Shown here: in pieces, positions 4,971-32,000 of the stretch | Numbering within the stretch: position 1 is the stretch's first letter | Layout: each line of letters opens with the position of its first letter | Position numbers and translations under genes: made by a program | Origin: Nitrososphaera viennensis EN76 | Lineage (GTDB): Archaea > Thermoproteota > Nitrososphaeria > Nitrososphaerales > Nitrososphaeraceae | Length of the DNA: 32,000 nt | NCBI RefSeq assembly: GCF_000698785.1 | Contig: NZ_CP007536.1 | Span: forward strand, 2,400,001 to 2,432,000 | Direction of reading: 5' to 3' | Notes under the pieces: model-generated | Seen by the model: only the letters and a program-made list of their open reading frames with translations | Database searches by the model: none | What the model was told of the DNA's origin: nothing

Positions 4971-5264
4971 TAGCAGCCGCCAACAGTTTTGCATAATCAC
5001 GCGATGAGGGCTGGCCATTCAGGCACTACGCCCTCATCCGCGGAGGGAGATAACCTCTGCCAATACTAGAAATGGAGAAAATAAAAGGGTTTAACCGGCG
5101 CTTGACAAAAGCCGCAAAGCGCTGCTACCATAGAAAAATTCCACTAGTTTCCTATAGACCTAGCCTTCAGTTGCTTAAACAATGATTGCTGCATAGACTT
5201 ACAAAAAGAGGCGACGCAGAACTTGCTTGATAGTGGTAGTACCAGTCTAAGGACGAACAGGAAC

Positions 5265-7832
5265 ATGCTGGCTTTTCTGATGGCCGTCCTGTTCTTTGCA
5301 TCCCTCAGCACGGTGCTGTTCGAGCTTGCGCTGACCCGCGTATTTTCCATAATCCTGTGGTACGACTATGCGTTCATGGCCATTTCAGTCGCGTTCTTTG
5401 GGCTTGGGATAGGCTCGCTCCTTGTGCATATGCAGAAGGACTACGGCAACAGCACGCGGCTCAGACGCAGCGGGATGTGGCGCTGGCTGTCGATGCCGCA
5501 GATGACTCCTGCAGCGCTTGCAAAAAAGATAACCGAGCATTCCATCGCGTACGCTATTTCTGTGCCATTGTTCATCCTGGCAGTGGCGCTAATCCCGCCT
5601 GACACATCGTACATCTATGTATTCTACCTCCTATCGTCGGTACCGTTCTTTTTTGCAGGGTTCATAATGGCGCTTGTGTTCTACGCCATGCCGCGGCAGA
5701 TAAGCAAGCTGTACTTTGCAGACCTTGTTGGCGCCTCCTCGGCGGCCTTGATGCTTGACCCACTCATGCTCGGCCTGGGAGCCGAGTCTGTGCTCCTGCT
5801 GACGTCGCTTCTGGTCGCAGGGTCTGCAATCGTTGGCATGCTCTTGCTCCTGAGAAACAAGAGAAAGGCAGAGCCGTCAGAGGTCATGACCAAACGGTCG
5901 AAAATATCTGCCGCCGCGGTCCTTGCGGGGCTCGCCGTCCTGCTACTGGTCAGCAGCCCTGCCGCAATGGCGGCGATGCAGCCGCAAGTGGCTAAAGGAA
6001 TTGACTACTTTGCCAAGGTGCACCCCGGGCCCAACAAGGGGCTGTACTGGCAGCTAATAGACCCCAACTTTGAGCACCTGTCGGCGCGGTGGAATTCGTT
6101 TTCACGGGTGGACGTCACAAAACAGAATTCCTTTGACAATGTCGACGTTGGCGCCGGCGGCACGCCCGTCAGGAGCCAGCGCGAGCTTGCCAACATCATC
6201 ATCGACGCCGATGCCGGCACGCCGATATACAGGTGGTCCGGCGACAGGGCAGAGCTTGCATGGATGCGCGACTACATGGACTACGTCCCGTACGATCTGA
6301 CAGCAAAAGCAGACCATGTCCTTGTAATCGGAGGCGGGGGCGGCGAGGACATCATGATGGCCCTTGCGGGGGGTGCGGACAAGGTGACTGCCGTCGAGAT
6401 AAACCCGATGATAGTGTCTGCTGTAAAGCGCTTTGGAGGGCCGGGCAACGTGTACGACAATCCGGACGTCGACCTGTTCATAGACGACGGCAGGCGCTTT
6501 ATCAGCTCCTCAAGCGACAAGTATGACATGATAACGATAAAACTGGTCGACTCGTGGGCGGCGCAGCTTGCCGGAGGCTACGCCCTGTCGGAAAACTACC
6601 TCTACACCGTCGAGGCATTCCAGCAGTACTACAGGCACCTGAGCGACGATGGGATGCTGGTCATGATCCGCTGGAACTTTGAGCTTCCCAGACTCATGCC
6701 AATAGTGGCCGAGTCGGTGGCGAGGGAGACCGGCCAGAGCATGGAAGACGCCAGCAGGCAGATAATGGTGGTGGAAGACCGCCCCGGCCTGTACTTTGGC
6801 CGCACGCAAGACTCGCAGATGTACTATCCTGTGCTTGTCATGGTCAAGGCAGTGCCTTTTATCGACGAGCAGGTAGACTTGGTAAGGCAAAAGGCCGAGG
6901 CAGGCCGCGCGGACGTGATGATGCTTGCCGACTCGATGATAAACCCGCCGTACGACAAGCTGTTCTCAAGTGCCAGCGCCTATGACGACTATGTAGCTGC
7001 GGCCGCTCTGGCAAACCCCAAGATCCCGACCGACGACTCGCCGTTCTACTTTGCAAAAGAGCCGGTGCCGCAGCAGATGGTCATACTGCTTGAAACCGTG
7101 CTTGCCATCTCTGCCGCACTGTCGGTGATTCTTGTGTACCATGCAAGAAGGACCGGGACGAGATTCAGGCAGAGCGAGCCGGGGATGGCTGCGCGCACGG
7201 CCGGCTTTGTCCTGTTTGCAATTTTTATTGGCCTTGGCTTTATGATACTGGAAATCACGTTCATACAGAAATTCCTGCTGCTCCTAGGCACCCCGATAAT
7301 GGCCCTGACGGTGATCTTATTCTCCATCCTGCTGTCAAGCGGCATCGGCGCGTACGTGAGCGGCAGGGTGTTTGGCGACAGGCCGCACAGGGCAGTGTTT
7401 TTGTCCGTGCCGATACTTGCAGGCATAATACTGTCCTACCTCTTTTTCCTGCAGGGGATAATCGACTCGAGCATCACGATGGAGCTACCTTCAAGGGCCG
7501 CGCTCACCTTCGCTCTCTTGTTCCCCTCCGGACTTTTGATGGGGTTCCAGTTCCCCTCGCTCATCAGGATGGCGTCAATGCCGCTGCGCTTTAACAACGG
7601 CACCGGCGATAAGAACAACAATAACAACACTACGCTATTGTGGGGGATAAACGTGGTTGCGTCCATACTTGGGACTGTGCTTGCCGCAATGCTGGCCATG
7701 ATAATAGGGTTCAACGGGAACCTGCTTGTCGGCCTTGCGATGTACGCCGGCGCAGGCGCGTCGGCGCTGTTGTCGTTTGTCGCCGGAAAAAGGTATGCAA
7801 ACCAGACGCTTCCGCTGACAGAGCGCGAATAA
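5265..7832 (+). CDS. Polytopic membrane protein with embedded spermidine/spermine-synthase-like (class I SAM-fold) domain
   Basis: Track ORF starts at TTG 5223; the first ATG at 5265 (MLAFLMAVLFF) is the likelier start. N- and C-terminal multi-TM blocks flank VLVIGGGGGEDIMMALAGGADKVTAVEINPMIV ... FIDDGRRFI ... YDMITIKLVDSW, the aminopropyltransferase-type Rossmann motifs. Confidence 0.8.
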   Translation: MLAFLMAVLFFASLSTVLFELALTRVFSIILWYDYAFMAISVAFFGLGIGSLLVHMQKDYGNSTRLRRSGMWRWLSMPQMTPAALAKKITEHSIAYAISVPLFILAVALIPPDTSYIYVFYLLSSVPFFFAGFIMALVFYAMPRQISKLYFADLVGASSAALMLDPLMLGLGAESVLLLTSLLVAGSAIVGMLLLLRNKRKAEPSEVMTKRSKISAAAVLAGLAVLLLVSSPAAMAAMQPQVAKGIDYFAKVHPGPNKGLYWQLIDPNFEHLSARWNSFSRVDVTKQNSFDNVDVGAGGTPVRSQRELANIIIDADAGTPIYRWSGDRAELAWMRDYMDYVPYDLTAKADHVLVIGGGGGEDIMMALAGGADKVTAVEINPMIVSAVKRFGGPGNVYDNPDVDLFIDDGRRFISSSSDKYDMITIKLVDSWAAQLAGGYALSENYLYTVEAFQQYYRHLSDDGMLVMIRWNFELPRLMPIVAESVARETGQSMEDASRQIMVVEDRPGLYFGRTQDSQMYYPVLVMVKAVPFIDEQVDLVRQKAEAGRADVMMLADSMINPPYDKLFSSASAYDDYVAAAALANPKIPTDDSPFYFAKEPVPQQMVILLETVLAISAALSVILVYHARRTGTRFRQSEPGMAARTAGFVLFAIFIGLGFMILEITFIQKFLLLLGTPIMALTVILFSILLSSGIGAYVSGRVFGDRPHRAVFLSVPILAGIILSYLFFLQGIIDSSITMELPSRAALTFALLFPSGLLMGFQFPSLIRMASMPLRFNNGTGDKNNNNNTTLLWGINVVASILGTVLAAMLAMIIGFNGNLLVGLAMYAGAGASALLSFVAGKRYANQTLPLTERE

Positions 7833-8857: not shown

Positions 8858-9943
8858 TTATTTATCCGCCGCACCCGACTTCCAGTCGCGGCTGTAGATC
8901 TCGTCTCGCAGCTTTTGTCCTTTGAACATGTGGAAATACGCGTTCCTTACCTTGCTCTGCCTTTCAAGCTCTGCCTGTATCCACAGGTTCTCAAACATCG
9001 AGTAATACGTAAAGACCGTAGACTCGCTGTTGGAATACGTTGCAAGTCCCGTGGCGTCTGAAAACGTGTTCTTTGAATCGTCGCTCACTTCAATCGCAAG
9101 CGAGTAGGTCTGGTCTGTCACCAGCGTCGTGATCTTGCTCTTTACGGCTTTTTCGATAAATGCCACGTTGATGCGATCGTGCTTTTGCTTGATCTTTTGC
9201 TTGGAAGCGTCCTTCATGGTTTCGTCGTCGACCTTGACCAGCACCTTCACGGCCACCCCGCGGCCGCTGGCCTCTCCAAGCAGGTCCAGTATGCCGTCTT
9301 TTTCCGCCCTATAAAAGGAATTGATGGTTGAAAAGAGGACGAGGATGTCAAACGTAGCAGAATCTGCCAGCACCTTTGCAAGATGCAGAATCCTAGAGGG
9401 CTCTCTTATGGTCTCGATGAACTCCCTCTGGATTCCTCGCTCTATTTCGCGGAGCTTGTCCTTTGCAGGGACCGTCCTGCTCAGCAGGTTGTCAAACAGG
9501 TATTGCTGCATCCTGACAAACTGCGGGTGTTTGGTCACGAGCGCCTGATCAGAGCGCTTTTCATTGCCGCCGCTGCCTGCATGGCAAAAGATGTACATCG
9601 AGCCGTCAACAATGCAAAAGCTGCCGCCGGCAATAATTCCATCTCCATGATGCACGTCCGCGTATTTTATCAGCTGCCTGGAAGCCACGGCGGTGTCTTT
9701 GGTGATGTTGGTGATGATGCGCAACTGCAAGTTCTTTTTCTTCAGCTCTGCAAGAAACGCCGCCAACTGTTTTGCATTTGACCCCTGCCCGAACCCTGCA
9801 AGGGGATCAAGGCAGAAATCAATCTTGTCAGATGCGTCGGACAAGAGGCTGAAAATGTCAGGACCGTCGGCTAGCGCGACAAATCCTCCGCCATCGTCAT
9901 CAGCAGGATTGTTATACGACGACGATGATGATCCGCGACCCAA
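8858..9943 (-). CDS. Hypothetical protein with two TrmB-C-terminal/PLD-like repeats and no HTH
   Basis: 361-aa ORF whose only upstream start is TTG. Low-complexity N-terminus (GRGSSSSSYNNPADDDGGG), then two similar alpha/beta modules (LRIITNITKD...FCIVDGSMYIF and FDILVLFSTIN...TTLVTDQTYSLAIEV). The functional call is tentative. Confidence 0.6.
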   Translation of the reverse strand: MGRGSSSSSYNNPADDDGGGFVALADGPDIFSLLSDASDKIDFCLDPLAGFGQGSNAKQLAAFLAELKKKNLQLRIITNITKDTAVASRQLIKYADVHHGDGIIAGGSFCIVDGSMYIFCHAGSGGNEKRSDQALVTKHPQFVRMQQYLFDNLLSRTVPAKDKLREIERGIQREFIETIREPSRILHLAKVLADSATFDILVLFSTINSFYRAEKDGILDLLGEASGRGVAVKVLVKVDDETMKDASKQKIKQKHDRINVAFIEKAVKSKITTLVTDQTYSLAIEVSDDSKNTFSDATGLATYSNSESTVFTYYSMFENLWIQAELERQSKVRNAYFHMFKGQKLRDEIYSRDWKSGAADK

Positions 9944-17790: not shown

Positions 17791-19134
17791 ATGGCAAACA
17801 AAGATCGGAGCGAGGCAGAAGAACAAGAGCGTCTGGACTATATCTTTCAGCACAATTACAATCGCATCGAACAAGCGGCCAAAAGGCTTGAGCGAAAAGG
17901 GGGTCAGTTCTCGATGAAGATTTCTGCCGAAAAAGGAGAAAGCGTTCAAAGCGAATATACTGTTCCCGATGAAGATGCCACGATGGAGTTTGCCCTCGCC
18001 CTTGCCAGATTTGCACTTCCTGACACCTCATACACCATCGACCATTGGTTGAAATTCCTCCGCGAGTTAGCCGGTGAGAAACATTCTCTAGAGTTTGACA
18101 AGATTGAAAAAACATTACAACAGATCCGAGAAGGGAATACGCTCCTTACCCTGAACCAAGAGAAAATAACAGATGCCAAGGCATACGAAATAATGGCTCG
18201 GCAGGTAGTCTTTGCAAACGATACGGACGCAATAGCCTATGAGCAGGAACTGCTAAAACATGGCGATATCATTCGCCAATTCATGTGGATGAAGTACGAC
18301 AGCTACTGCCTTGGACTCTGGCAATTACTTCAATGGGTTCATGATTACCGCAAGAAACATGGAATCAGAGCCGCACATGTTAACCGCGAAACCATTTGCA
18401 TTTATTGCAAAGCAACGCAGGGCGACTTTGACCACGTAGAGCATACAATACCTGAGAGTCTTGGAAACGAATACGGCTTCCTTCCAAGAGGATATGTCTG
18501 TGGAGATTGCATGGCCGCCTTGAACAGCATAGAGGACGGCATCAATGATATGCTTCCGTTCTCTCTGGCCTTGATTACTACCAGCATCGGGAACAAGAAA
18601 GGCAAGCTTCCGTCACTGAAGTCACCCGAAATCCACATCCAGAAGAAGAGCCCCAACAAGCTGGTGTTCAAGTCCTTCGGAAAAAAGGGGGAACTCCGGG
18701 AAGAACCAGTGCAAGGTGGCGGTCATAAAATCAGCATCACTGTAAGCGGGCGCTTCGATGTACATAGAATTGCGCGGATGCTTTCCAAAGCTGCACTTGG
18801 AACCATCGCATTGGTGAAGGGTCGTGACGCAGTACTGGACGCCAAGTTCGATGACATAAGACGTTACATAATCAAGGGCGGTACATTTCCGAACAAGTTA
18901 ATGATATTCAAAGAGGGACTCCCTTCCCCTCGCATGGAAGCGGAGTGGTATGAGGTTGAGGGTGTCCCGGTGGTGAAACTCATTGTCTTGGGTTTCATTT
19001 TCATTGTAATCTTGGGTGAGAGACCTAAGTTCGATCCTCGTGATGAGCTTAAACCGCATATCATGATGTATGACTTGTCGCTTGAAAAACCAGAGGCAGC
19101 AGTTGAGAAGATGGATGGAACAAACCAAACATAA
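17791..19134 (+). CDS. HNH-nuclease-domain protein (HNH_5-like core) with about 200-aa N-terminal helical domain and C-terminal extension
   Basis: The core at nt 18397-18525 is CIYCKATQGDFDHVEHTIPESLGNEYGFLPRGYVCGDCMAALN, i.e. CxxC...EH.iPeslG...vCxxC. ATG start. Confidence 0.75.
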   Translation: MANKDRSEAEEQERLDYIFQHNYNRIEQAAKRLERKGGQFSMKISAEKGESVQSEYTVPDEDATMEFALALARFALPDTSYTIDHWLKFLRELAGEKHSLEFDKIEKTLQQIREGNTLLTLNQEKITDAKAYEIMARQVVFANDTDAIAYEQELLKHGDIIRQFMWMKYDSYCLGLWQLLQWVHDYRKKHGIRAAHVNRETICIYCKATQGDFDHVEHTIPESLGNEYGFLPRGYVCGDCMAALNSIEDGINDMLPFSLALITTSIGNKKGKLPSLKSPEIHIQKKSPNKLVFKSFGKKGELREEPVQGGGHKISITVSGRFDVHRIARMLSKAALGTIALVKGRDAVLDAKFDDIRRYIIKGGTFPNKLMIFKEGLPSPRMEAEWYEVEGVPVVKLIVLGFIFIVILGERPKFDPRDELKPHIMMYDLSLEKPEAAVEKMDGTNQT

Positions 19135-21853: not shown

Positions 21854-23233
21854 TTGCTAGTGGTTCAAGCACTCGTACGGAGAAAGAGCCGTCTAAGGGT
21901 CAAGGGTATCAAAGTCAAGGACAGGGGAAAGATCAAAGAAGCTATAACGATCAGCATACAAAACGGCAACTATACTACCAGAGAAATAGGCATTGACATT
22001 GGCAAAGACCATAGCACCATATCACGGTATCTGACGGAAATGGAAAGAGAAGAAAGGTGGGGAATCAAGCGCGATGCCAATGGCAATATCATCATATCGC
22101 TGCAAAAGCAAATAGCTCAACAGTACCAGAGATTAGACAAGGAACCGTTCAACCAGCTGCCATCCATTCAAAAATGGATAACCTACCTGAAATCTGGCAA
22201 GATTCCAGCTAGAAGAATAAGATACATGACAAACATGGTCCATGAGATATCCGACCAGCTAAAGGTCATGCCTGAAACCATTGTTAGCTTTGGAGTGCCG
22301 ATAGACGCTGCAAAGCGCAAAGAAATAGCTATAGAGTACTGGCAGCACTTTCTAGCTTGGTTCAACTCTGCATATCCACAGATGCAGAGGACGAGAAATA
22401 TCACTACATTCCGAAGCTTCCTTTCGGCGCACAACATCAACTTTGCCCACGGTGAAGGCAAGCGCTATGGGCTGTCAACTACGCCGGAAAAGCTTGGTGA
22501 ATACAAGGATATCATGCTCACACCGGAGCAGATAGACAGGATAAACAAAAGACTGGAAAACGAGGGCGACTGGCTATCTTGGAGCTTTATGAACATCGAT
22601 CTGCATACCGGAGCTAGAGCCTTTGCGATGGCATCTATGAGCTGGGACAGGATTGCCATGTCTCCTATCTTTAGAGTGGAGCAGTTCGAGCCCAAGATAA
22701 AGAAAGGCTCATGGTATCTTGGAAGTGAGGGCAAGTGGTGGGTCAAGTACCCGACTGAAGAATGCCGCGCTATTGTTGAAACTGCTTATGACAGGCTACC
22801 AAAAGAAAGAAAATTCCTGTTCTTTGAGGATGCCAAGAGCGACAAGGCAAACGCGCTGCAGGTGGCATATTTTATGAGAAAGATGGCAGTCAGGCTCAAA
22901 AAGATATTTTCAGAGCTTGACATAAGCAGCTGGCTAAATGAAAAGACGAGGATGTACGCGCTTGGAGACGGATTGTACTTCACCGGACATCCATTGCATT
23001 TGTTCAGGCATACAATGGCTCAATACTATCTTGCAGCGACAAACTGGTCACTCGCTTACGTGGCAAGCTTGGGTGGATGGGAAAATACCGAAGTGCTGAA
23101 CAAGTGCTACGGCGGCATTCCAGAGCATATCAAGGCACAGATTGCTAAGTCAGTTCATGTTAAGTTTGATAAACTAGATCTTTGTGTTGCAGTTGCTGCA
23201 GAATATACATCGTTAATTTCTCGCATCAGGTAG
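21854..23233 (+). CDS. Tyrosine recombinase (phage-integrase family) with N-terminal HTH
   Basis: Catalytic signature: HTGARAFAMASMSWDRI (Arg), HLFRHTMAQYY (HxxR), GGWENTEVLNKCYGG (Trp/Tyr). N-terminal HTH is TTREIGIDIGKDHSTISRYL. Only TTG 21854 or GTG 21860 can serve as start. The gene is intact, not split as in SSV-type integration. Confidence 0.85.
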   Translation: MLVVQALVRRKSRLRVKGIKVKDRGKIKEAITISIQNGNYTTREIGIDIGKDHSTISRYLTEMEREERWGIKRDANGNIIISLQKQIAQQYQRLDKEPFNQLPSIQKWITYLKSGKIPARRIRYMTNMVHEISDQLKVMPETIVSFGVPIDAAKRKEIAIEYWQHFLAWFNSAYPQMQRTRNITTFRSFLSAHNINFAHGEGKRYGLSTTPEKLGEYKDIMLTPEQIDRINKRLENEGDWLSWSFMNIDLHTGARAFAMASMSWDRIAMSPIFRVEQFEPKIKKGSWYLGSEGKWWVKYPTEECRAIVETAYDRLPKERKFLFFEDAKSDKANALQVAYFMRKMAVRLKKIFSELDISSWLNEKTRMYALGDGLYFTGHPLHLFRHTMAQYYLAATNWSLAYVASLGGWENTEVLNKCYGGIPEHIKAQIAKSVHVKFDKLDLCVAVAAEYTSLISRIR

Positions 23234-23315: not shown

Positions 23316-24536
23316 GTGGATATTAAACAGAGAAGAATGCTACTTCTTCAGAATCCCTCCACACTCAACCGCGAAGAAACTTGGCTTCGTGAAGCTTACG
23401 CCAACATAGTATCCAATCTGCTGGAGTACGCTACGGATCCTTCTTCTAACATTGATCCTTTCGCTGCAAAGTTCATGGGCATTGAGGCTCTTGAAAATAA
23501 TAAGGAAGAATATCGCGCCTTCATGGAGGTTACGTCCTACTTTTGGGGTTCCAAAGGAGGAAGAGGAGCTTTAATAGAAAAGATAATGGCTGCGGCTGCT
23601 GGCACCACCGCAGCTAATGGAATACTCCTTTCAAAAATACCCAAATGGATAGCGTCTATCAAAGGCATCCAAGATGTTAAGGAGTGGAAGTCTACTGGGA
23701 GTGATCCTAAGCTGAAGTTTGACTTATTGAATGTAATTGGCAACAGGCTCGTATTCTTGGAGATAAAGAATAGAGTGGATAGTGGCGGTACTGCTGCCAG
23801 AGAGGAGGCACTGGCAAAGAAATTCCTAAAACTAGCCGAGATGATTCAGAACGGAATCCCAATCTATATTGGCGATGGTGTTGACATGGATATTGCACAA
23901 ACCTTTCTCGGACTTGGTATCAAGAGATTGGAAATGCATGCAGGTTTCTTGTTTAACTCCAAAGGGGATGAAGCAACGATAGAAGATGATAAATCAAAGG
24001 GATTCTATGGACAGAGCAAGAGGCTACTGGAGGAATATTTTAAGAAACACAACAATCGCTTCTCTGTAAAGCTAACTTACGATACAAACAACCAAAGGCT
24101 GAGTTTTGAAAAAGACGGCTTGGCCGTAATTATCGATTTGCTATACGGAAGCGATGTTACCAAGAATTTTACCCATGAACAATTGAACCTTGGGAAAGTC
24201 ATGAACAAGGTGTTTAGGAAGAAATGGGATGACATTTGGTTGTCTGTAAAGATGGCAATCTCTCAGAGAACCCTTTTACTAAGAGATGGAAACAACATTA
24301 TTGGCGAAATAGGACGTTCATTAACTAAAAAAGCTGACCCGGGTTTCATTGTAAATTATGACAAATTTGTGGCGAACCCAGAAGATATCAAAAGTTTAAT
24401 GGAATGTGTTAGAATCATTAAACAAAAGATAGGCTCATCATCGTCAACAGCCGATGGCGAAATAGCTGATTGTGTTTATGCATACGCTGGCGTCCACTAT
24501 CCCTATAAAAAGTTTAAATCCTCTGTGGAGGTCTGA
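23316..24536 (+). CDS. Candidate type II restriction endonuclease (PD-(D/E)xK-like)
   Basis: Ends 21 nt before the methyltransferase gene on the same strand. FDLLNVIGNRLVFLEIKNR provides a D...ExK arrangement. Start is GTG 23316 or ATG 23337. Confidence 0.5.
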   Translation: MDIKQRRMLLLQNPSTLNREETWLREAYANIVSNLLEYATDPSSNIDPFAAKFMGIEALENNKEEYRAFMEVTSYFWGSKGGRGALIEKIMAAAAGTTAANGILLSKIPKWIASIKGIQDVKEWKSTGSDPKLKFDLLNVIGNRLVFLEIKNRVDSGGTAAREEALAKKFLKLAEMIQNGIPIYIGDGVDMDIAQTFLGLGIKRLEMHAGFLFNSKGDEATIEDDKSKGFYGQSKRLLEEYFKKHNNRFSVKLTYDTNNQRLSFEKDGLAVIIDLLYGSDVTKNFTHEQLNLGKVMNKVFRKKWDDIWLSVKMAISQRTLLLRDGNNIIGEIGRSLTKKADPGFIVNYDKFVANPEDIKSLMECVRIIKQKIGSSSSTADGEIADCVYAYAGVHYPYKKFKSSVEV

Positions 24537-24557: not shown

Positions 24558-25700
24558 ATGATCTCCTATAATTTACTCAAAGGCGATTCCCTTAAGGTTC
24601 TAAGAGAACTCGCAAACGATCCTAATGAGAAAGGAAAATATCGCGTGATCATAACTTCTCCACCATATTATGGTCACAGACACTATGGCAAGAATGGTGT
24701 CGAAGAGGTAGGCCGGGAAAAGACAGACCAGCAATTCATCGACAAACTAGCCGAAATCTTTGGAACTTGTAGAGATTTACTGACGGAAGATGGTTCACTT
24801 TGGATAGTCATAGGCGATACTCGCCGAAATAACAGCAAACTTATGATTCCCCACAGGCTGGCACTGAAACTGGTTGAAAAGAGCTACACATTCAGGGAGG
24901 ATATAGTCTGGTACAAGAAAAATAATGTGTCAAGTAGTGCTAAGAACAATCTTTCTCAAGCTTACGAGTTTATTCTATTTCTGTCCAAGAATGATTCATC
25001 ATATACCAACCTCGACCTCATCAGGGTAAGAGGCAATGAGGCCAGAGAAGGAAGGAATAAGACTCCTCCGCCTGAACTCATACAACACAAGCCTATTAAT
25101 CCCGACAAGAAGAAAATTGCTCAATTAGAAGAAATTATCCACAATGCAGAGCCAGACACGCCATTTAGTGCGCTGCCTTCTACAAGCGAGATTTCATTGG
25201 CATACGGTTATGATCCAGAGAAGTATTGTCCTACTTGCTTTAGAAAGTTCAAGAGACACGCTACGCGCAAGAGAATTGGCGACCACAAACATTATCCGAT
25301 ATTTGCAGTATGCAATCCGATTGGCAAAAACCCCGGCAACGTCTGGGAAATATCTACGAAGGCACATTATGGTAACGAGCATTTCGCGATCTTCCCCGAA
25401 GACCTTGTTGCTCGCATAATCAATTTTGCATCACAGGAAGGAGACTGGGTTCTCGACCCTTTCATGGGAAGAGGCACAACTGGCATAGTCTGTGCGTTAA
25501 CTGGCAGGAACTTCAAAGGGATTGACTTATATGAAAAGAACGTGAAAACGTCAGAAGAAAACATTGAAGAAGCTATGAAAGGAACATACGACAACAAATT
25601 GATAAACGCAGTAGCGAGAGAAACGAAATTAGCGGAGTCCATAGAGGATAAGATGACGTTAGAAACTTACCTGCTAACAGATGGTTCATTTTCTAAATAA
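24558..25700 (+). CDS. Beta-class N4-cytosine/N6-adenine DNA methyltransferase (SPPY type, probably m4C)
   Basis: Motif IV VIITSPPYYG is N-terminal and motif I VLDPFMGRGTTG is C-terminal, which is the beta-class order. IVWYKKN also fits. The variable region between them has CPTC ... HKH. Confidence 0.9.
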   Translation: MISYNLLKGDSLKVLRELANDPNEKGKYRVIITSPPYYGHRHYGKNGVEEVGREKTDQQFIDKLAEIFGTCRDLLTEDGSLWIVIGDTRRNNSKLMIPHRLALKLVEKSYTFREDIVWYKKNNVSSSAKNNLSQAYEFILFLSKNDSSYTNLDLIRVRGNEAREGRNKTPPPELIQHKPINPDKKKIAQLEEIIHNAEPDTPFSALPSTSEISLAYGYDPEKYCPTCFRKFKRHATRKRIGDHKHYPIFAVCNPIGKNPGNVWEISTKAHYGNEHFAIFPEDLVARIINFASQEGDWVLDPFMGRGTTGIVCALTGRNFKGIDLYEKNVKTSEENIEEAMKGTYDNKLINAVARETKLAESIEDKMTLETYLLTDGSFSK

Positions 25701-25714
25701 ATAATGTCGTTACT

Positions 25715-25885
25715 TCAAAGTGCTTGTTCATTATCCAATTTGACGATTCTATCGAGTCTGCCGCTTATCCAATGAACCTTGTCTGTCATTTCATATACCA
25801 CATTCCAAATATGCAAGGCTTGCCGTGAACCGGTGATCATAAAGTGTGTGCCTGATTCTCGTATACGATATGTTTTATTTGCCAT
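25715..25885 (-). CDS. Possible 56-aa protein (below track cut-off)
   Basis: My own translation: MANKTYRIRESGTHFMITGSRQALHIWNVVYEMTDKVHWISGRLDRIVKLDNEQAL*. Minus-strand TATA-like TAATATAGA lies about 27 nt upstream of the ATG, with a palindrome between them. Confidence 0.3.
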   Translation of the reverse strand: MANKTYRIRESGTHFMITGSRQALHIWNVVYEMTDKVHWISGRLDRIVKLDNEQAL

Positions 25886-25892
25886 ATCTGGC

Positions 25893-25915
25893 AGAATACT
25901 CTAGAACTGTATTCT
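25893..25915. promoter_or_regulatory. Inverted repeat AGAATAC-N9-GTATTCT between TATA and ATG of the 56-aa ORF
   Basis: Read from the sequence. The position is typical of an operator overlapping a transcription start site. Confidence 0.35.
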
Positions 25916-26073
25916 ATATTAGTTTTACAAACATTAGAGAAATGAGCTTGAAACGAGGCCTACTTTTTTTTTAACAAAGAACAGACTTTCTTAACATAAG
26001 CCACTTTTTTTGACAAAGCCCCAAATTTCATAAGGGTTTTTAGTTGCCATTAGCAAGATTATTCGGCGATTAG

Positions 26074-26697
26074 GTGGAAAAAGAAGAGCCTACAGTCTAT
26101 ACTCCAGACAACGAACCTTATTTGGGCCGCGAGACGGTTTTGGCATTCGACAACGCCATTATCGCATGTTTGAACGCCAACAAGCACATCGCACCATATA
26201 CTCATAAGATTGTGAAATCTGATTTACAGTGGGTGGCTTGCCAAATAATTCCACAAGGTATCAGCATTGCCTTGTCAATTCGCGAATTGGTCAGGCAAGG
26301 GTATCTGTTTGGCGCATCTGTATTGACGCGATCGCTGATCGAGCGTGCAACAATAATGCTGTATCTTTATAAGAATCCAGAAAAAGTCGAGGTTTGGAAG
26401 CGAGGTTGGAAGTACAACGAACGCCCGAAACTGGCGGAGATGTTAAACTCAATTGGAAAAGACAAATTTCCAAATATTGGACGTATGCTTACTCCTGTTT
26501 ACAATAGTTTAACACATGGAGATCCTGAAAGTGCACTTTGGAATTTAGTCCAAACCAGAGACGGTGGTGTAGGATACAGTGTTTCCAAGATTCTCAATAA
26601 CCCTTCATTGTGTGATAAAATCTGCTTTGAAGGTTCCACATGGCTTTTGGTTTTGACATCAATGGCAATTACGATATTTCCAAAAGCAACTGATTAA
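26074..26697 (+). CDS. HEPN-like (AbiV/DUF5677-like) protein with variant motif YNSLTH
   Basis: GTG start. Helical core SIRELVRQGYLFGASVLTRSLIERATIMLYL, and YNSLTH (nt 26500-26517) where HEPN proteins carry R-N-x3-H. The assignment is tentative. Confidence 0.45.
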   Translation: MEKEEPTVYTPDNEPYLGRETVLAFDNAIIACLNANKHIAPYTHKIVKSDLQWVACQIIPQGISIALSIRELVRQGYLFGASVLTRSLIERATIMLYLYKNPEKVEVWKRGWKYNERPKLAEMLNSIGKDKFPNIGRMLTPVYNSLTHGDPESALWNLVQTRDGGVGYSVSKILNNPSLCDKICFEGSTWLLVLTSMAITIFPKATD

Positions 26698-26778
26698 CAA
26701 GATCTGAATATATCAGATATACTTGATTATGACGAATTAGCTTAAAGATATGAATAGAATACCTATGATTAGAACAAC

Positions 26779-27276
26779 ATGAATGACGCTGTGATTTTGG
26801 AGAGGTCAAAACGTTTAGCAAATCATGCCATATGGACAGTGACGCTACAATACAGAAGAATGAGGACTAATGAACCGGAAGACAGTAAATTCATGCTTAG
26901 GTGGTGGGCTGATCTGCAATTTTTCATTTTGAGTCTGCACAGGCTTCGCACTGCAGTAAAAATAGCACTCAATGTTTCAGATATTACAATCTCCACTCGT
27001 ATGGCTGTCGCTATCGAAGAATTCGACAAAGCAATACCTGACCTTAAGAAACTTCGTGACATTGGAGAACACATAGATGCCTATGCTGTTGACAATCCGA
27101 AAAGACATAGACCAGAAGTCAACCGCAGACAGCTCGAAGTTGGTTCATGGAATGGCACCGTTTACGAATGGCTCGGTATCAAGCTAAATGTGGATGAAGC
27201 TAATACTGCTGCGCAAAAACTTTTCAAAACCTTGCTGAGTGCCTACCGAAATTTTGCGCGCCCAGAAATGAAATAA
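26779..27276 (+). CDS. HEPN-domain protein (Rx4H: RDIGEH)
   Basis: ATG about 28 nt downstream of TATA-like CTTAAAGATAT. All-helical. LKKLRDIGEHIDAY (nt 27055-27072) fits the HEPN Rx4-6H RNase motif. Confidence 0.5.
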   Translation: MNDAVILERSKRLANHAIWTVTLQYRRMRTNEPEDSKFMLRWWADLQFFILSLHRLRTAVKIALNVSDITISTRMAVAIEEFDKAIPDLKKLRDIGEHIDAYAVDNPKRHRPEVNRRQLEVGSWNGTVYEWLGIKLNVDEANTAAQKLFKTLLSAYRNFARPEMK

Positions 27277-27401
27277 GGTTAAGATAGATAAACAAGTTAG
27301 CATCTAGATATTTTGCATATAGAATTACTCCCGGTCTAACTGCATCTCCTTGTGCAACAAAAACGAAAGATAATTAATTCCCGCCATACTTAGTTGCATC
27401 T

Positions 27402-28118
27402 TTGATCGATTTTCACTACCCTGACGAAATGGAAGATTCACTTTTTGGCACGCTGCCGCACTGGAGCAAGCTCACGCCAAAGGTGGAAAAAAGCGCCAAT
27501 CAAGTAATGATCCTTGGTCACATGACTACAAAGCACAAACTCGTTGCGGCGGGCGTCAGCAGTAATTTCATGCACCAGTTATACCAAAAGGAGGGATGGT
27601 TTACAGCGACAGACCAATTCTTGATCAGGGTATTCGCAGAAAACATCTTCTTCCATCTTTCCAGTTGCCTTGATGCTCTTGGACACGAGGTCAGCCAGAT
27701 TTTTCAGGTTCAGCTGCCCTTTGAGAGGGTACAGATTGACCATATGAATAATCAAAAGAATTGCTTGCGCTGTCTACTCCAACGAAAGGACGTGGCCTTT
27801 GCTTCTTTCCTTGATTCTGAATTGCCACAGAAGGGCAGTCAACCCGGCCACTGGTACCATGCTTTTACAGAGTATCGGAATCAAGTTGTGCACCGCACTC
27901 TGTACGTAGTCCTTGCCGGGCCTAAAGCAATGGTATTGCCCGACAATCCGACAAACTTGAATCCAAGGGTTTCATTAAAGGACCATACTTCTCCCACGTA
28001 CTATTTTGACCCGGACTATCATGAGCAAAGAGAAATCAGAAAATATACGCTTGACTGCATTTATGAAGTAAGAGATACCGTCGAAAAGATCTATGCCAAG
28101 CTTGACGGCAAGATTTAG
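27402..28118 (+). CDS. HEPN-domain protein (RNx3H: YRNQVVHR), Abi-like
   Basis: TTG start about 25-30 nt downstream of GATAATTAATT. FFHLSSCLDALGHEV helix plus FTEYRNQVVHRTL (nt 27876-27893), the classical R-N-x-x-x-H HEPN motif of AbiD/F-type proteins. Confidence 0.6.
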   Translation: MIDFHYPDEMEDSLFGTLPHWSKLTPKVEKSANQVMILGHMTTKHKLVAAGVSSNFMHQLYQKEGWFTATDQFLIRVFAENIFFHLSSCLDALGHEVSQIFQVQLPFERVQIDHMNNQKNCLRCLLQRKDVAFASFLDSELPQKGSQPGHWYHAFTEYRNQVVHRTLYVVLAGPKAMVLPDNPTNLNPRVSLKDHTSPTYYFDPDYHEQREIRKYTLDCIYEVRDTVEKIYAKLDGKI

Positions 28119-28122
28119 ACTA

Positions 28123-28533
28123 CTATGCAGCCTGACAAGGCCCTCTCCCTAGATCGACAATAACGTTTGCAAAAGTACTATCAAGCTCTGTCTGCACGCA
28201 TTTCTTGCACACTCTTTTGTCCTCTAGCAAGCTTCCGAGAGTAATAGCGCGACGCCCGCTACAGCGCTCACAGTTGGCTTTCACACCGTCTTTTAGCTGC
28301 AGGGCCTTCACTGCCATTGGAATGTCAAGCTTGTAAGCGACAAGAGGATGCAGCGACCTGTTTGTCATAGCGTCATCATATCGTGGGACTTGTGCGAGCT
28401 CTCTGCGACGCACAACATCAATTGCAAACAGCTCCGATATGCGTCCGGAGAAGGCTCTATCTGTAGACATACCAAGAAGCTTATGCCACTCGTCCTCAGT
28501 CTTTTCTGCATATACGGTGGATGTGACAGCCAC
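28123..28533 (-). CDS. Zinc-ribbon protein (C-terminal part of a possibly frameshifted gene)
   Basis: Protein-like frame with GTG at 28533 or ATG at 28470. CERCSGRR ... CKKC. Overlaps 28365..28664 in the -1 frame. Confidence 0.5.
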   Translation of the reverse strand: MAVTSTVYAEKTEDEWHKLLGMSTDRAFSGRISELFAIDVVRRRELAQVPRYDDAMTNRSLHPLVAYKLDIPMAVKALQLKDGVKANCERCSGRRAITLGSLLEDKRVCKKCVQTELDSTFANVIVDLGRGPCQAA

Positions 28534-28664
28534 TTTGCAAGCAACTCCTCATGCTTGTCTCCGATCCTTGTTAGCAGCAGTCCTTGCTTGCTGCCCTTCT
28601 GGTTGCGTGGAAGATCAATACTCCAAGTATGACGGCAATTAGGACAGGTTATGCGGCCCTTCAT
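28365..28664 (-). CDS. Zinc-ribbon N-terminal ORF; only the first 45 codons or so look protein-like
   Basis: ATG at 28664 overlaps the upstream stop (ATGA). MKGRITCPNCRHTWSIDLPRNQKG... After ...HEELLAKW the frame turns into C/S/L-rich sequence, while the -1 frame (28533..28123) looks genuine. Confidence 0.35.
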   Translation of the reverse strand: MKGRITCPNCRHTWSIDLPRNQKGSKQGLLLTRIGDKHEELLAKWLSHPPYMQKRLRTSGISFLVCLQIEPSPDAYRSCLQLMLCVAESSHKSHDMMTL

Positions 28665-29515
28665 TGTCCAGTCCCCTGCCTGATTTTTTCTAGCAACTCC
28701 TTGTTCAATTTCACGTTAACTCCAAATACCCCAGACTCTACTTCATCAACGATAATCAGTATTCCACCGGCCATATCTTCTCTGACGTATTTGTAGTAGG
28801 TTTTGCTTGACCCCAGAGCCTTCCCACTTTCACCGCATCCATAGGGAGCTGCTTCGGCGAGCTTTCTTGGATTCCATGAATGTTGCTGCGCAAAAGGACC
28901 GTTCACAAGGTCACGAACCCACCTGTCATACCTAGGACGCATGATGGCGTGTTTCATCCCTTCCCTGCTTGAGAAGGGCACACTGTTCATCTCATCATCG
29001 AGCGAACCAAGGCCACCGACAACCACTGCCACCCCGCCAAGCGCTCTCTCTCCCTGACGTGGATCAGTCAGCCTGTTTCTGCCTAGCACCGTAGCCAGGT
29101 GTTTTTTGTTGTCGGCGTCGTTGCAAGTTATGCAAGCTACTCGTAGTTGCTGCAGTTCGTTCTGATTGATTATGTAAGTTGGGTGATGGACCTGCAATTC
29201 TCCAATAGACATTCGGCGTTTGCAGAAGATACAGATAGCTTCGCTGCCGTCATAGCCCTGTTCTAGCGAGCGAATTATCTTGAAGTGGTCCTTATGGGGC
29301 TTCTTCAGTCGCTGTGGATTGGTCCATCTGGATTTTAGTTGCTGAAGAAGGTTTTCTCTCCCGGTGCTAGCTAGCACCATCTGGGCCAGCATACTGACCA
29401 CCTTCGGCGCAATATTCATCTTTTCCAACGCTTTCAGGGTTAGGTCGTCAGGCATAGCAACTGGACCCGTACCTGTGTCAATTGTCTGATTCTTGAAATT
29501 GCGTTCTTCGGTCAT
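28661..29515 (-). CDS. HNH endonuclease-domain protein with C-terminal winged-helix-like region
   Basis: ATG at 29515 (MTEERNF) is preferred over the track TTG at 29554. The HNH core at nt 29120-29233 is CIFCKRRMSIGELQVHHPTYIINQNELQQLRVACITCN. The C-terminus (KLAEAAPYGCGESGKALGSSKTYYKYV...GGILIIV) is wHTH-like. Confidence 0.7.
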   Translation of the reverse strand: MTEERNFKNQTIDTGTGPVAMPDDLTLKALEKMNIAPKVVSMLAQMVLASTGRENLLQQLKSRWTNPQRLKKPHKDHFKIIRSLEQGYDGSEAICIFCKRRMSIGELQVHHPTYIINQNELQQLRVACITCNDADNKKHLATVLGRNRLTDPRQGERALGGVAVVVGGLGSLDDEMNSVPFSSREGMKHAIMRPRYDRWVRDLVNGPFAQQHSWNPRKLAEAAPYGCGESGKALGSSKTYYKYVREDMAGGILIIVDEVESGVFGVNVKLNKELLEKIRQGTGQ

Positions 29516-29582
29516 TCGCCCGCACCCCCTGTTACACTTATGACAAGAACACAAGCTTTATGAATAGGGTAGAGAATACTCA

Positions 29583-29804
29583 TTATAGTTCAGCCCTCTG
29601 TTCTGCAGTTGGTTGACTGGAGTCGCTGCCCGCCCTCCCAGAGCTAGGCACGCTCCGACTTTTCTTTTTACCAAATTGCTTATTGCCTTCCAGTTTCCGC
29701 CTCAGGTGCGTTATAACGTCATTGAAACTGTCTCCAGCTTGGCCTTTACTCTTCAACCAAAAGTAGTTTTTCGGCTCGACTACGATATGGTGCATTTTTA
29801 CCAT
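29583..29804 (-). CDS. VapB-type (PF02697-like) putative antitoxin/small DNA-binding protein with basic tail
   Basis: HHIVVEPKNYFWLKSKGQAGDSFNDVITHLRRKL follows the archaeal pattern TItVsdevYe.LkklKg..eSFSdvI..Ll. ATG start. Confidence 0.6.
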   Translation of the reverse strand: MVKMHHIVVEPKNYFWLKSKGQAGDSFNDVITHLRRKLEGNKQFGKKKSRSVPSSGRAGSDSSQPTAEQRAEL

Positions 29805-29827
29805 AATTAATCTGATTGAGTAAGTTG

Positions 29828-29835
29828 AATATAGA
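29828..29835 (-). promoter_or_regulatory. TATA box for the 29804->28123 operon
   Basis: Minus-strand CTCTATATT lies about 24-29 nt upstream of the ATG at 29804. Confidence 0.45.
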
Positions 29836-29922
29836 GATGATGGCGCTTGTCATAAGTTAGGTATAACTGCGTTGTGGTGAACGACAAGCTTAAAAAGTAC
29901 TTTCTATAAGATTCATACATAC

Positions 29923-30228
29923 ATGCGTCTCTTCGGCAAGGAGAAAAGAACTTTCACACTGCAGAGCGGCGTGGTCGTTGATAAATTCGACATCGAGCGA
30001 GATTGCGGATGGTGCGGTGAGCGCCTCCACGAGGGTCACCGCTTTAGCGTATACTGTGAATATGACGAAAGCATGAAAGATTTTCACGCTAAACTCATTC
30101 AGGCGAAAGACATACCAGTCGAGGCCGGCCTCGGCTTGCCCCGGGAAACTAAACTGATTGTTTTTAATTTTCACGGCCGCTGTGCAAACACAATGTACGG
30201 CAGGCAGGTTGCGGCGTCTGAGAAGTAA
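29923..30228 (+). CDS. Orphan Cys/His-rich protein (101 aa)
   Basis: ATG ORF with TTAAAAAG about 27 nt upstream. CGWCGERLHEGH ... HGRC suggests metal binding. More protein-like than the antisense ORF 29890..30267. Confidence 0.45.
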   Translation: MRLFGKEKRTFTLQSGVVVDKFDIERDCGWCGERLHEGHRFSVYCEYDESMKDFHAKLIQAKDIPVEAGLGLPRETKLIVFNFHGRCANTMYGRQVAASEK

Positions 30229-30254
30229 ACTCGTTTCGTTTAGTTTCAGTGCCT

Positions 30255-30893
30255 CTAGTAAAACCACCGCGAAATAATATCGTCATCAGCACGTTGCCGT
30301 CTATTTCCGCTGCTGTGACGGGCGTACGGGTCAAAATTCGATAAGTAGCTGGCGTACGGATTCTCGAAAACGACAGAATCAGGTTCCGGTTCTGCACCGC
30401 GTTGCACTCGGTCGTATTGGACATCTGACTCGTAGCGCCTGCCAGTCGGCCTGCCGCTCCAGTCTAGACGAAAAGCAGGAGGGCTGAAGGCGGCAGCGAA
30501 ATTTGCAATATTTTGCTGTTCGTAATAATCCGCGAAGTCTGACTCTGTTTCGGGAAGTTTAAACCGTTGCCGTCTCTCACGCCGTGACGATCTCCTGCCG
30601 CCGCTCGTGTAATAATCGCCGGCCTCTTGGATTTCTTCTCTGACAGTGCTAGCTACCTCATATGCTGCCTCTTTTGCGCGCACAACCCTTTCACTTGGCT
30701 CGTATCTTGCCGCCTTTTGAATCGCGCCTCGTACGCGCTCGCCGGCGTCGGCTAGTTTTTCCCGGCTCAAACTGCCTCTGACGGAGCCCTTGATTTTATC
30801 AACATCAAAGCGGGTCTTTTTCTCGTTCAAGAACTTTCGTCGCCTCTCTTCGTCTCCAGTTCTTTCACGCTTTATGAAGTCGTCCTTCCTCAA
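30255..30893 (-). CDS. Orphan Arg/Glu-rich protein (212 aa)
   Basis: TTG start 3 nt after the upstream stop, so likely operonic. Charged helical N-terminal half and an aromatic/Pro-rich C-terminal half. GC-rich like the core genome. Confidence 0.55.
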   Translation of the reverse strand: MRKDDFIKRERTGDEERRRKFLNEKKTRFDVDKIKGSVRGSLSREKLADAGERVRGAIQKAARYEPSERVVRAKEAAYEVASTVREEIQEAGDYYTSGGRRSSRRERRQRFKLPETESDFADYYEQQNIANFAAAFSPPAFRLDWSGRPTGRRYESDVQYDRVQRGAEPEPDSVVFENPYASYLSNFDPYARHSSGNRRQRADDDIISRWFY

Positions 30894-30896
30894 GTC

Positions 30897-32000
30897 CTAG
30901 GATCGCCTCTTGCTCCTGCCCTTCTTAGCACCCGGCAAGAAAGCACGCACAAAGTCCCCGTAATCGTCGCGCCCGAATCCGGGCAACTTCTTTGCAGCCT
31001 TTTTGCCATATGCCAGTGTGAGCACGTCAGGTATCTGCCATTCCCGCTCGAAATAATCCGTCCGGTCCATTCTGGAACGTTGCGCATACTTGCCGGGTGT
31101 CTCGACAGTGGGCCAAAATGTAAAGTCCGGCGGTCTGACTATCCTCTCCGGTGTAGGTCTGTTTGGCACATCGAAACGTGGCACAAGCTGTTGCTGAAAT
31201 CTAAAGAGCGGTGTCTGCAATGTAGTTTGGAGATCTTGCTGCCTAATCAAAGTGCCCGTATCTCTACTCACGCCAAAGTTGAACGACTGCTTCAGAAATT
31301 TCTCTGAGACTTCTGTCGGCGTGCGGAGCTGGCCTAAACCTTGTTGGCTGATAATCAGCTCCAGGGTATTCTTGCGCAGGGCCCTATCGAGATCGCTTTC
31401 GCCAGTGAGAGCAATATTACCTATCAAAACTTGCACTGCGCGTTGCCGCTCCCTACCTTTCGTGTTTTGTACGGCAGTCAGCGCGTCAAGCATCCTTTCT
31501 GACGCTTTTCTAGCCTCTCCTCCCACTTGCCCCGGCCTCTCAACGAGTTTTGCAAGTGAATCTTGTACGCGGTTGTTGAAAATCTGATCCATGGTTGGCG
31601 GGCCCCGGCCTCCTGCTTCAGGTCTGACATCGAACGTCAGGCCAAACTGCTGCTCTGTTGCTGTTTCAGCGGCAGCATAGCCAAAACCGCCAAAGGTGTT
31701 AGAAGCTGCCATTGCAGCGCCTCCAAGGAATGTGCCGGCGCTTTTTGCTGCTTGCTTTTCGCGGTCTATGATCTTACGTACAGAGTCAAGCGTCTTTGTA
31801 GCTGTTGGGCCTGCTCCTCCACCTACACCTCCGGATGCGCCGGGCCTAAAGCCAACTTGCTCACCGGTTCCAAGAAATTCTTTGATTCCCTTTTCGGTGG
31901 AAAGCGCCTCTTGAATCTCTTTTACAGTCCAGCCCTCACTTGAGGAAACTCCCTTTTCTACCACCTGGACCTTTACATTCACATCTCCGCGCCCGGGAAT
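30897..32000 (-). CDS. Orphan protein with Gly-rich segment and basic tail; N-terminus probably off-window
   Basis: The frame remains open from the track GTG (31982) to the window edge. Gly-rich GASGGVGGGAGP, a Q-rich central region, and C-terminal KKGRSKRRS. Confidence 0.6.
   Translation of the reverse strand: MPGRGDVNVKVQVVEKGVSSSEGWTVKEIQEALSTEKGIKEFLGTGEQVGFRPGASGGVGGGAGPTATKTLDSVRKIIDREKQAAKSAGTFLGGAAMAASNTFGGFGYAAAETATEQQFGLTFDVRPEAGGRGPPTMDQIFNNRVQDSLAKLVERPGQVGGEARKASERMLDALTAVQNTKGRERQRAVQVLIGNIALTGESDLDRALRKNTLELIISQQGLGQLRTPTEVSEKFLKQSFNFGVSRDTGTLIRQQDLQTTLQTPLFRFQQQLVPRFDVPNRPTPERIVRPPDFTFWPTVETPGKYAQRSRMDRTDYFEREWQIPDVLTLAYGKKAAKKLPGFGRDDYGDFVRAFLPGAKKGRSKRRS

Follow-up and report, generated by a model that had tools for sequence, protein, structure and literature searches.

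Three consecutive genes on the forward strand of the soil ammonia-oxidizing archaeon Nitrososphaera viennensis EN76 raise the question of whether adjacent HEPN-like genes form one defense system or have come to lie side by side. We analyzed a window of 32,000 nucleotides (contig NZ_CP007536.1, positions 2,400,001 to 2,432,000; the coordinates below count from its first nucleotide) in which these genes, here called A, B, and C, follow a restriction-modification (R-M)-like pair. An earlier reading of this DNA from its letters alone, the sequence-only reading, had placed three consecutive + strand genes at 26074-28118, and the open reading frame (ORF) coordinates agree. Gene A (26074-26697, + strand) encodes 207 amino acids (aa) from a GTG start, gene B (26779-27276, + strand) encodes 165 aa, and gene C (27402-28118, + strand) encodes 238 aa from a TTG start, or 229 aa if translation begins at the ATG at 27429, which public gene calls also use. 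The DNA likewise gives the three reported hexapeptides, with YNSLTH at 26500-26517 in A, RDIGEH at 27055-27072 in B, and RNQVVH at 27876-27893 in C. The sequence-only reading pointed toward a HEPN defense system of three components that is tied to the R-M pair and in which A could be catalytically dead. We hold this to be very improbable. With moderate confidence, we favor a defense-type cluster on an integrase-bearing island of low G+C content (GC), in which a Type II-like methyltransferase gene, with a putative cognate endonuclease, precedes three stand-alone genes that evolve independently, of which B and C would be HEPN-type RNases.

We infer RNase activity, dimerization, and a defense role for these genes along the following lines. 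B and C would be metal-independent HEPN-type endoribonucleases, each forming a homodimer in which the paired R...H motifs build a composite active site. As effectors of the abortive-infection or toxin type, they would cut cellular or viral RNA once triggered. A would be a DUF5677 helical protein that is non-catalytic or relies on other residues, since the HEPN arginine is absent throughout its family.

Co-occurrence of genes A, B, and C

The three proteins were described as mutually divergent, and this description holds, as pairwise profile-profile comparisons of A, B, and C with hhalign showed no similarity. Co-occurrence was examined with a hidden Markov model (HMM) of each family, which was searched against the six-frame ORFs of every fetched locus. 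The B loci comprised 24 GTDB genome loci as well as L002-L006, L070, L071/L072, and L073, with flanks of up to about 8 kb, and neither A nor C was found within about 8 kb at any of them. The 24 genome loci belong to Solirubrobacterales, Gaiellaceae, Lysobacterales, Terriglobales, Bryobacteraceae, candidate phyla radiation (CPR) bacteria, Nitrospinaceae, Dehalococcoidia, Polyangia, and Nitrososphaerota, and the distribution of B over Actinomycetota, Acidobacteriota, CPR bacteria, Nitrospinota, and Nitrososphaerota is patchy. Each of the 22 bacterial genome loci had an intact B but no A, which was missing from both archaeal genome loci (L017 and L040) as well. Locus L001, the fifth distinct context beyond the genome loci, carried A and B but not C. 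In total, about 30 B loci other than the present one had neither A nor C. Loci of the C family were located by a degenerate DNA pattern scan, and about 18 soil contigs with C family members (GC of 0.28 to 0.39) contained neither A nor B. Homologs of A were solitary in seven further contexts, and those in L061-L069 had neither B nor C beside them. The sizes of the families are also far apart: with more than 1,053 matches, A is more than 20-fold more numerous than B, which has 49, and the C family numbers 42.

Independent occurrence in other genomes, the outcome that the sequence-only reading had itself set against a conserved unit, was thus found for all three genes. As each family is normally solitary, the locus is to be regarded as a cluster of defense genes rather than a three-part system. 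The adjacency of the genes on one strand beside an R-M-like pair, together with the known clustering of HEPN genes with R-M operons (PMC3710099), had made a coupled system attractive, but the trio was seen only at the locus of this strain, and no pair co-occurs elsewhere except A and B in one lineage. The closest relative has A and B without C and without R-M genes, the block that it shares with the window stops before C, and the arginine that A lacks is missing family-wide, without local degeneration. An identical locus is present in NCBI assembly GCA_024760425.1 (CP103305.1, 2.52 Mb). The gene calls of CP103305.1 and of several metagenome contigs follow the same A-B-C order, and relatives of the locus carry the label Nitrososphaera.

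The 129 ORFs neighboring B include Type I methyltransferases, PifA/KAP, PbeA, a transposase, and integrases. Among the neighbors of the C family are kdpABC and uvrABC as well as a Schlafen/AlbA_2 gene. B and C were both absent from plasmids. In L071 (1850-3504), a B homolog with 67% identity begins 39 nt past a tyrosine integrase gene, with AbiEii nearby, and B homologs also lie downstream of a Mutator-family transposase (L031) and of an AAA_16 ATPase (L024).

The A-B block and its non-coding tail

In a blastn comparison, the window and L001 had a single 1,355-bp block in common (26024-27378, + strand) with 92.3% identity. The block extends from about 50 nt 5' of A to about 100 nt 3' of B, and the flanks in L001 are unrelated. 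It ends 24 nt before the start of C, which therefore lies outside it, and the L001 copy is accompanied by neither C nor R-M genes. Within one Nitrososphaera lineage, A and B were inherited or moved jointly as a block of 1.36 kb. A third A-B juxtaposition was found in L074, a soil metagenome contig with 73% identity, which has the same gene order with B intact and A truncated at its 5' end. The remnant of A in L074 (95-484) lacks about 80 codons, has an in-frame stop upstream, and directly precedes the intact B.

Other B genes of the Nitrososphaera clade have no A. The A-B linkage is lineage specific and decays through loss of A, and this speaks against A as an essential antitoxin of B. B is independent of A, because elsewhere A is absent or truncated beside an intact B.

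These observations bear on the alternative that A and B constitute a functional two-gene module, for example an Arg-less HEPN-like regulator or antitoxin that would accompany a HEPN RNase toxin, or the two with their roles exchanged, and that C is an unrelated neighbor. We consider such a module unlikely. The presence of A, B, and the conserved 3' tail within one block in two differing genomic contexts, the recurrence of the pair in L074, the 81-nt gap on the same strand, and the similar layout of the predicted models of A and B are all consistent with it, but the many loci with an intact B and no A, the truncated A in L074, and the far larger A family, which was solitary in all other contexts examined, argue against it. 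Moreover, no conserved alternative partner of B was detected, as all-against-all clustering of its neighboring ORFs yielded nothing beyond shadow ORFs and the synteny of close relatives. The locus is best read as a defense-island-like accumulation of stand-alone HEPN-like genes on an integrated element, consisting of the A-B block plus a separately placed Cthe_2314-like gene.

A conserved non-coding element lies 3' of B within the block (27313-27376, + strand), with the 25-nt core TTGCATATAGAATTACTCCCGGTCT at 27313-27337. This tail element is better conserved than the coding sequence: the window shares the core with L001 and L002-L006/L017 at 100% identity, compared with 75% for the B coding sequence. 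The core is found at 2388-2412 in L001 and at 5327-5351 in L002 and is present in a single copy in the window. The tail element was absent from viral contigs, no stable RNA fold was predicted for it, and it precedes different genes in different contexts. The intergenic gaps before A, B, and C measure 373, 81, and 125 nt, and each contains A/T-rich strings. The TATA-like string that had been assigned to C falls inside the tail element, which travels with B; the string CATATAGAA lies at 27316-27324. The tail element may be an outward-facing promoter or some other DNA-level signal. It is more doubtful still than the plain two-gene module that the A-B block and the 25-nt element together represent an undescribed mobile archaeal module, in which the Arg-less DUF5677 protein would tune a HEPN RNase of a new family and the tail would serve as an outward promoter for whichever gene lies downstream (here C) or as a recombination site.

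HEPN motifs and family membership

The bare motif Rx4-6H was found in 40 of the 85 ORFs of at least 100 aa in the window, and the stricter form R[NDHQ]xxxH was found in 7 of them. Because the bare motif is this common, its conservation within a family is what counts. B and C carry the HEPN-type R-[ND]-x3-H motifs that the sequence-only reading had recognized, and these are conserved across both families, whereas Rx4-6H is not conserved in the family of A. Given this family-wide conservation, B and C are credible HEPN-type RNases.

None of the three genes had a match in PADLOC, PHROGs, or NCBIfam. For B, no Pfam model was found either, and none of its 49 homolog clusters carries a Pfam domain. 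In an alignment of 40 sequences of the B family, R93, E97, and H98 are invariant, with the consensus [LM]R[ND][VI]GEH, and D45 (in WWADLQFF) is invariant as well. In the AlphaFold2 model of B, with a mean confidence score (pLDDT) of 92.9, residues 3-29, 41-65, and 69-85 form long helices and residues 89-97 a short one, after which a loop and a three-stranded sheet lead to the terminal helix (138-160). The motif (93-98) falls at the end of the predicted helix 89-97, and D45 sits in predicted helix 2 (41-65). This predicted arrangement would agree with the published HEPN rule, which places the motif where helix 3 ends and an acidic residue in helix 2 (PMC3710099). Taken together, the alignment and the model make B a probable, though not proven, HEPN-type RNase.

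For C, a word-indexed search returned C alone, and an exhaustive HMMER search gave 42 representatives, the best with 40% identity. Conserved among the relatives are W-Y-x2-F-x2-Y-R-N-Q-[VI]-x-H-R, a segment reading LDSLAHEIN, and DH...CxRC. In the numbering of the 229-aa form, R150 is conserved in at least 90% of the relatives and H155 is largely conserved. H105, C112, and C115 are nearly invariant. Judging from its sequence, C is a divergent Cthe_2314-like HEPN protein. The region of C that matches the Cthe_2314-like HEPN family (Anantharaman et al. 2013) contains the RNQxxH motif, and the 2013 survey listed the conserved partners of that family as "None detected" (PMC3710099), as was also the case for C here. 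The Cthe_2314-like family was described as bacterial, whereas C comes from an archaeal genome and its relatives come from low-GC soil contigs. The C family also differs in having a conserved DH...CxRC insert. In three soil contigs, copies of the C family are split into two overlapping ORFs or reduced to fragments (L043, 1778-2327; L048, 1585-2305; L052, 3-633), and these copies look like pseudogenes.

Gene A belongs to a different family. It passes the Pfam cutoff for DUF5677 (PF18928) with 30.3 against 27.1 bits, although only aa 54-110 are aligned, and all 38 aligned homologs match DUF5677 over the first third of the profile only. As the alignment of A and these homologs is confined to profile positions 3-58 of 166, the clade of A is a divergent branch. 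Its more than 1,053 homologs occur in bacteria and archaea, with 53 to 94% identity among the 120 listed. The motif of A, YNSLTH followed by GDP, has the conserved N and H but no Arg, and its consensus among the 120 listed homologs is [F/Y/L]NSxxHGDP. All 120 have F, Y, or L and never R at position 143, and 119 of them keep H148; N144, G149, and P151 are conserved as well. Two homologs on Vibrio plasmids, with 35% identity, have the motif LNDIVHGKP, with L at position 143. The proposal that A is a degenerate R-to-Y partner of the other two is thus not borne out: a hydrophobic residue 143 is fixed throughout the clade, and A represents a separate, larger family. Since Arg is missing in all A homologs examined, its absence is ancestral to the clade and does not result from local degeneration. 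HEPN families without Arg but with a conserved H exist, for example HEPN-T/PaREP1 (PMC3710099), so the missing Arg does not exclude a HEPN fold for A.

Members of the DUF5677 family are reported to be enriched beside serine recombinases in Bacillota (PMC12632615), and A lies near integrases both in this window and on the Vibrio plasmids. In L066 (2115-4639), an A family homolog is located directly downstream of a reverse transcriptase gene (RVT_1, 507 aa) and a 94-aa ORF, the stop of which overlaps the start of the A homolog. This context may be that of a retroelement or of a defense-related reverse transcriptase.

All three proteins had been called all-helical. For A and B, the AlphaFold2 models are indeed helical bundles, but small beta hairpins are present too. 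In the model of A (pLDDT of 89.6), motif residues 143-148 lie where helix 135-147 ends, ahead of a hairpin and the last helix. The two models have similar layouts, in which three long helices precede a short helix with the motif, and a beta hairpin then leads to a terminal helix. In Foldseek searches of PDB, the B model matched mostly generic four-helix bundles, with HepT (6m6u) among the top matches at a non-significant E of 0.36, and a search of BFVD returned a single unnamed match (E of 7e-3). The A model likewise matched generic helical bundles, and AbiV, 4nqf, 1ufb, and the sacsin HEPN domain appeared at non-significant E values of 1 to 2. Sequence searches of PDB with the A, B, and C profiles gave nothing significant. 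One profile match between B and ApeA (E of 1.3) dropped out with a trimmed profile and was dismissed as noise.

Several results weigh against assigning RNase and defense functions to this locus. Sequence profiles did not link B to any HEPN family, no Pfam HEPN model was reached by any of 40 members of its family, and neither the A nor the B model had a HEPN match in PDB at our Foldseek significance threshold of E <= 0.001 (best E of 0.16 to 0.98). C matches the Pfam model HEPN_Cthe2314 (PF18730) at E of 2e-4 with 21.9 to 22 bits, below the gathering cutoff of 27.1. Many of the neighbors of B are housekeeping genes, so that its association with defense islands is anecdotal. In Enterococcus, a DUF5677 gene was one of nine tested candidates and was not among the phage-protecting ORFs (PMC12632615).

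In another view, to which we give a minor share of credence, at least one of A, B, and C would not be an RNase or defense gene at all but a helical protein whose conserved His, Arg, or Cys residues are structural or bind a ligand. In A, C32, H148, C180, and C184 are invariant even in the 35%-identical Vibrio plasmid homologs. These residues could form a possible Cys3His metal site, in which case the "HEPN" His would be structural. In C, the nearly invariant H105 together with CxRC could form a zinc knuckle. The housekeeping neighbors of B and C (uvrABC, kdpABC, and tRNA synthetases), the Foldseek results, and the lack of reported phage protection by the DUF5677 candidate point the same way. 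However, the R-[ND]-x3-H spacing, the predicted helix-end position, and the invariance of the motif in B and C are a textbook HEPN signature, and the patchy spread across phyla with links to integrases and transposases fits mobile conflict genes. In addition, the C family repeatedly matches two Pfam HEPN models: 14 of 28 scanned relatives matched HEPN_Cthe2314 at E <= 0.01 (best E of 2.5e-6), and two matched HEPN_LA2681. C, itself below the gathering cutoff, would on this evidence be a distant relative of the Cthe_2314-like family rather than a curated member.

Genomic setting and comparison with known systems

The R-M pair upstream of the trio stands in part. The N6/N4 DNA methyltransferase (24558-25700, + strand) is solidly identified as Type II-like, with 157 bits for Pfam N6_N4_Mtase and 193 bits for PADLOC MTase_II. 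Its partner, a 406-aa protein (23316-24536, + strand), ends 21 nt upstream on the same strand and had no match in Pfam, PADLOC, NCBIfam, PDB, or plasmids. With no family match, its designation as a putative restriction endonuclease comes from its position only. An integrase-like gene lies farther upstream (21854-23233, + strand) and weakly resembles tyrosine recombinases, with an E of 1.4e-4 for Pfam Phage_integrase, under the family cutoff, and 5.9e-4 for a PHROG integrase. It marks the island as a piece of an integrated mobile element. GC is 0.40 to 0.43 across 23 to 27 kb, compared with 0.47 to 0.57 in the flanks. A search of phages gave no DNA match. No tandem or flanking repeats that might indicate an RNA antitoxin or attachment sites were found around the locus, and no Rfam family was matched.

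Between the methyltransferase gene and gene A, a small ORF lies on the - strand (25715-25885). It encodes 56 aa, or 41 aa in several public assemblies, and the gap around it bears two T-runs, TTTTTTTTTAACAAAG and TTTTTTTGACAAAG. Downstream of C, the - strand carries a row of genes of 136, 284 to 297, 73, 212, and at least 361 aa (28123-32000), none of which had a Pfam or PHROG match. The last of these runs past the end of the window and encodes a Gly/Ala-rich protein of 835 to 932 aa, depending on the public gene call. Elsewhere in the window are an 869-aa protein whose methyltransferase fold is spermidine-synthase-like (5223-7832, + strand), a protein with a phospholipase D (PLD)-like nuclease/phospholipase domain (8858-9943, - strand), and a 447-aa protein that matches HNH_5 weakly (17791-19134, + strand).

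We additionally compared the locus with described HEPN systems. B and C share with HepT/DUF86, the toxin of the MNT-HEPN type, and with AbiV a small size, an R-x4-H motif, and a predicted dimeric RNase function, and a predicted helical bundle with the motif at a helix end may also be common to them. However, the Foldseek matches to these proteins were weak and non-significant, and there were no sequence-profile matches to HepT or AbiV. The MNT-HEPN (HepT/MntA) toxin-antitoxin system includes an adjacent MNT nucleotidyltransferase gene, which is not present here. The sequence-only reading had seen no MNT-like antitoxin, and our search agrees with it, as no nucleotidyltransferase domain was found in any neighboring ORF. 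In contrast to Type III toxin-antitoxin systems (AbiV- or ToxIN-like), no antitoxin RNA of the repeat or structure type lies next to the genes. Intergenic tandem repeats were not found in 25600-28300, and the sole TRF match, a two-copy 12-nt repeat at 26388-26412, is inside gene A.

The R-M-linked HEPN anticodon nucleases PrrC and RloC resemble the present case in that a HEPN-type gene lies beside R-M genes, and a HEPN gene adjoining R-M genes suggests a backup suicide function (PMC3710099). PrrC and RloC are large, have ABC-ATPase domains, and are encoded within Type I R-M operons, whereas B and C are small single-domain proteins beside a Type II-like methyltransferase. The B and C families are also not consistently linked to R-M genes.

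The defense systems of ammonia-oxidizing archaea are poorly charted. Three adjacent HEPN-like genes do not make a system, and the present locus counsels caution in annotation by adjacency. The practical gain is modest and lies in fresh seeds for HEPN family models. To these, the locus contributes the B family, which is not modeled in Pfam and carries a textbook HEPN catalytic signature, and a divergent group of Cthe_2314-like HEPN proteins, among them the archaeal copy described here.

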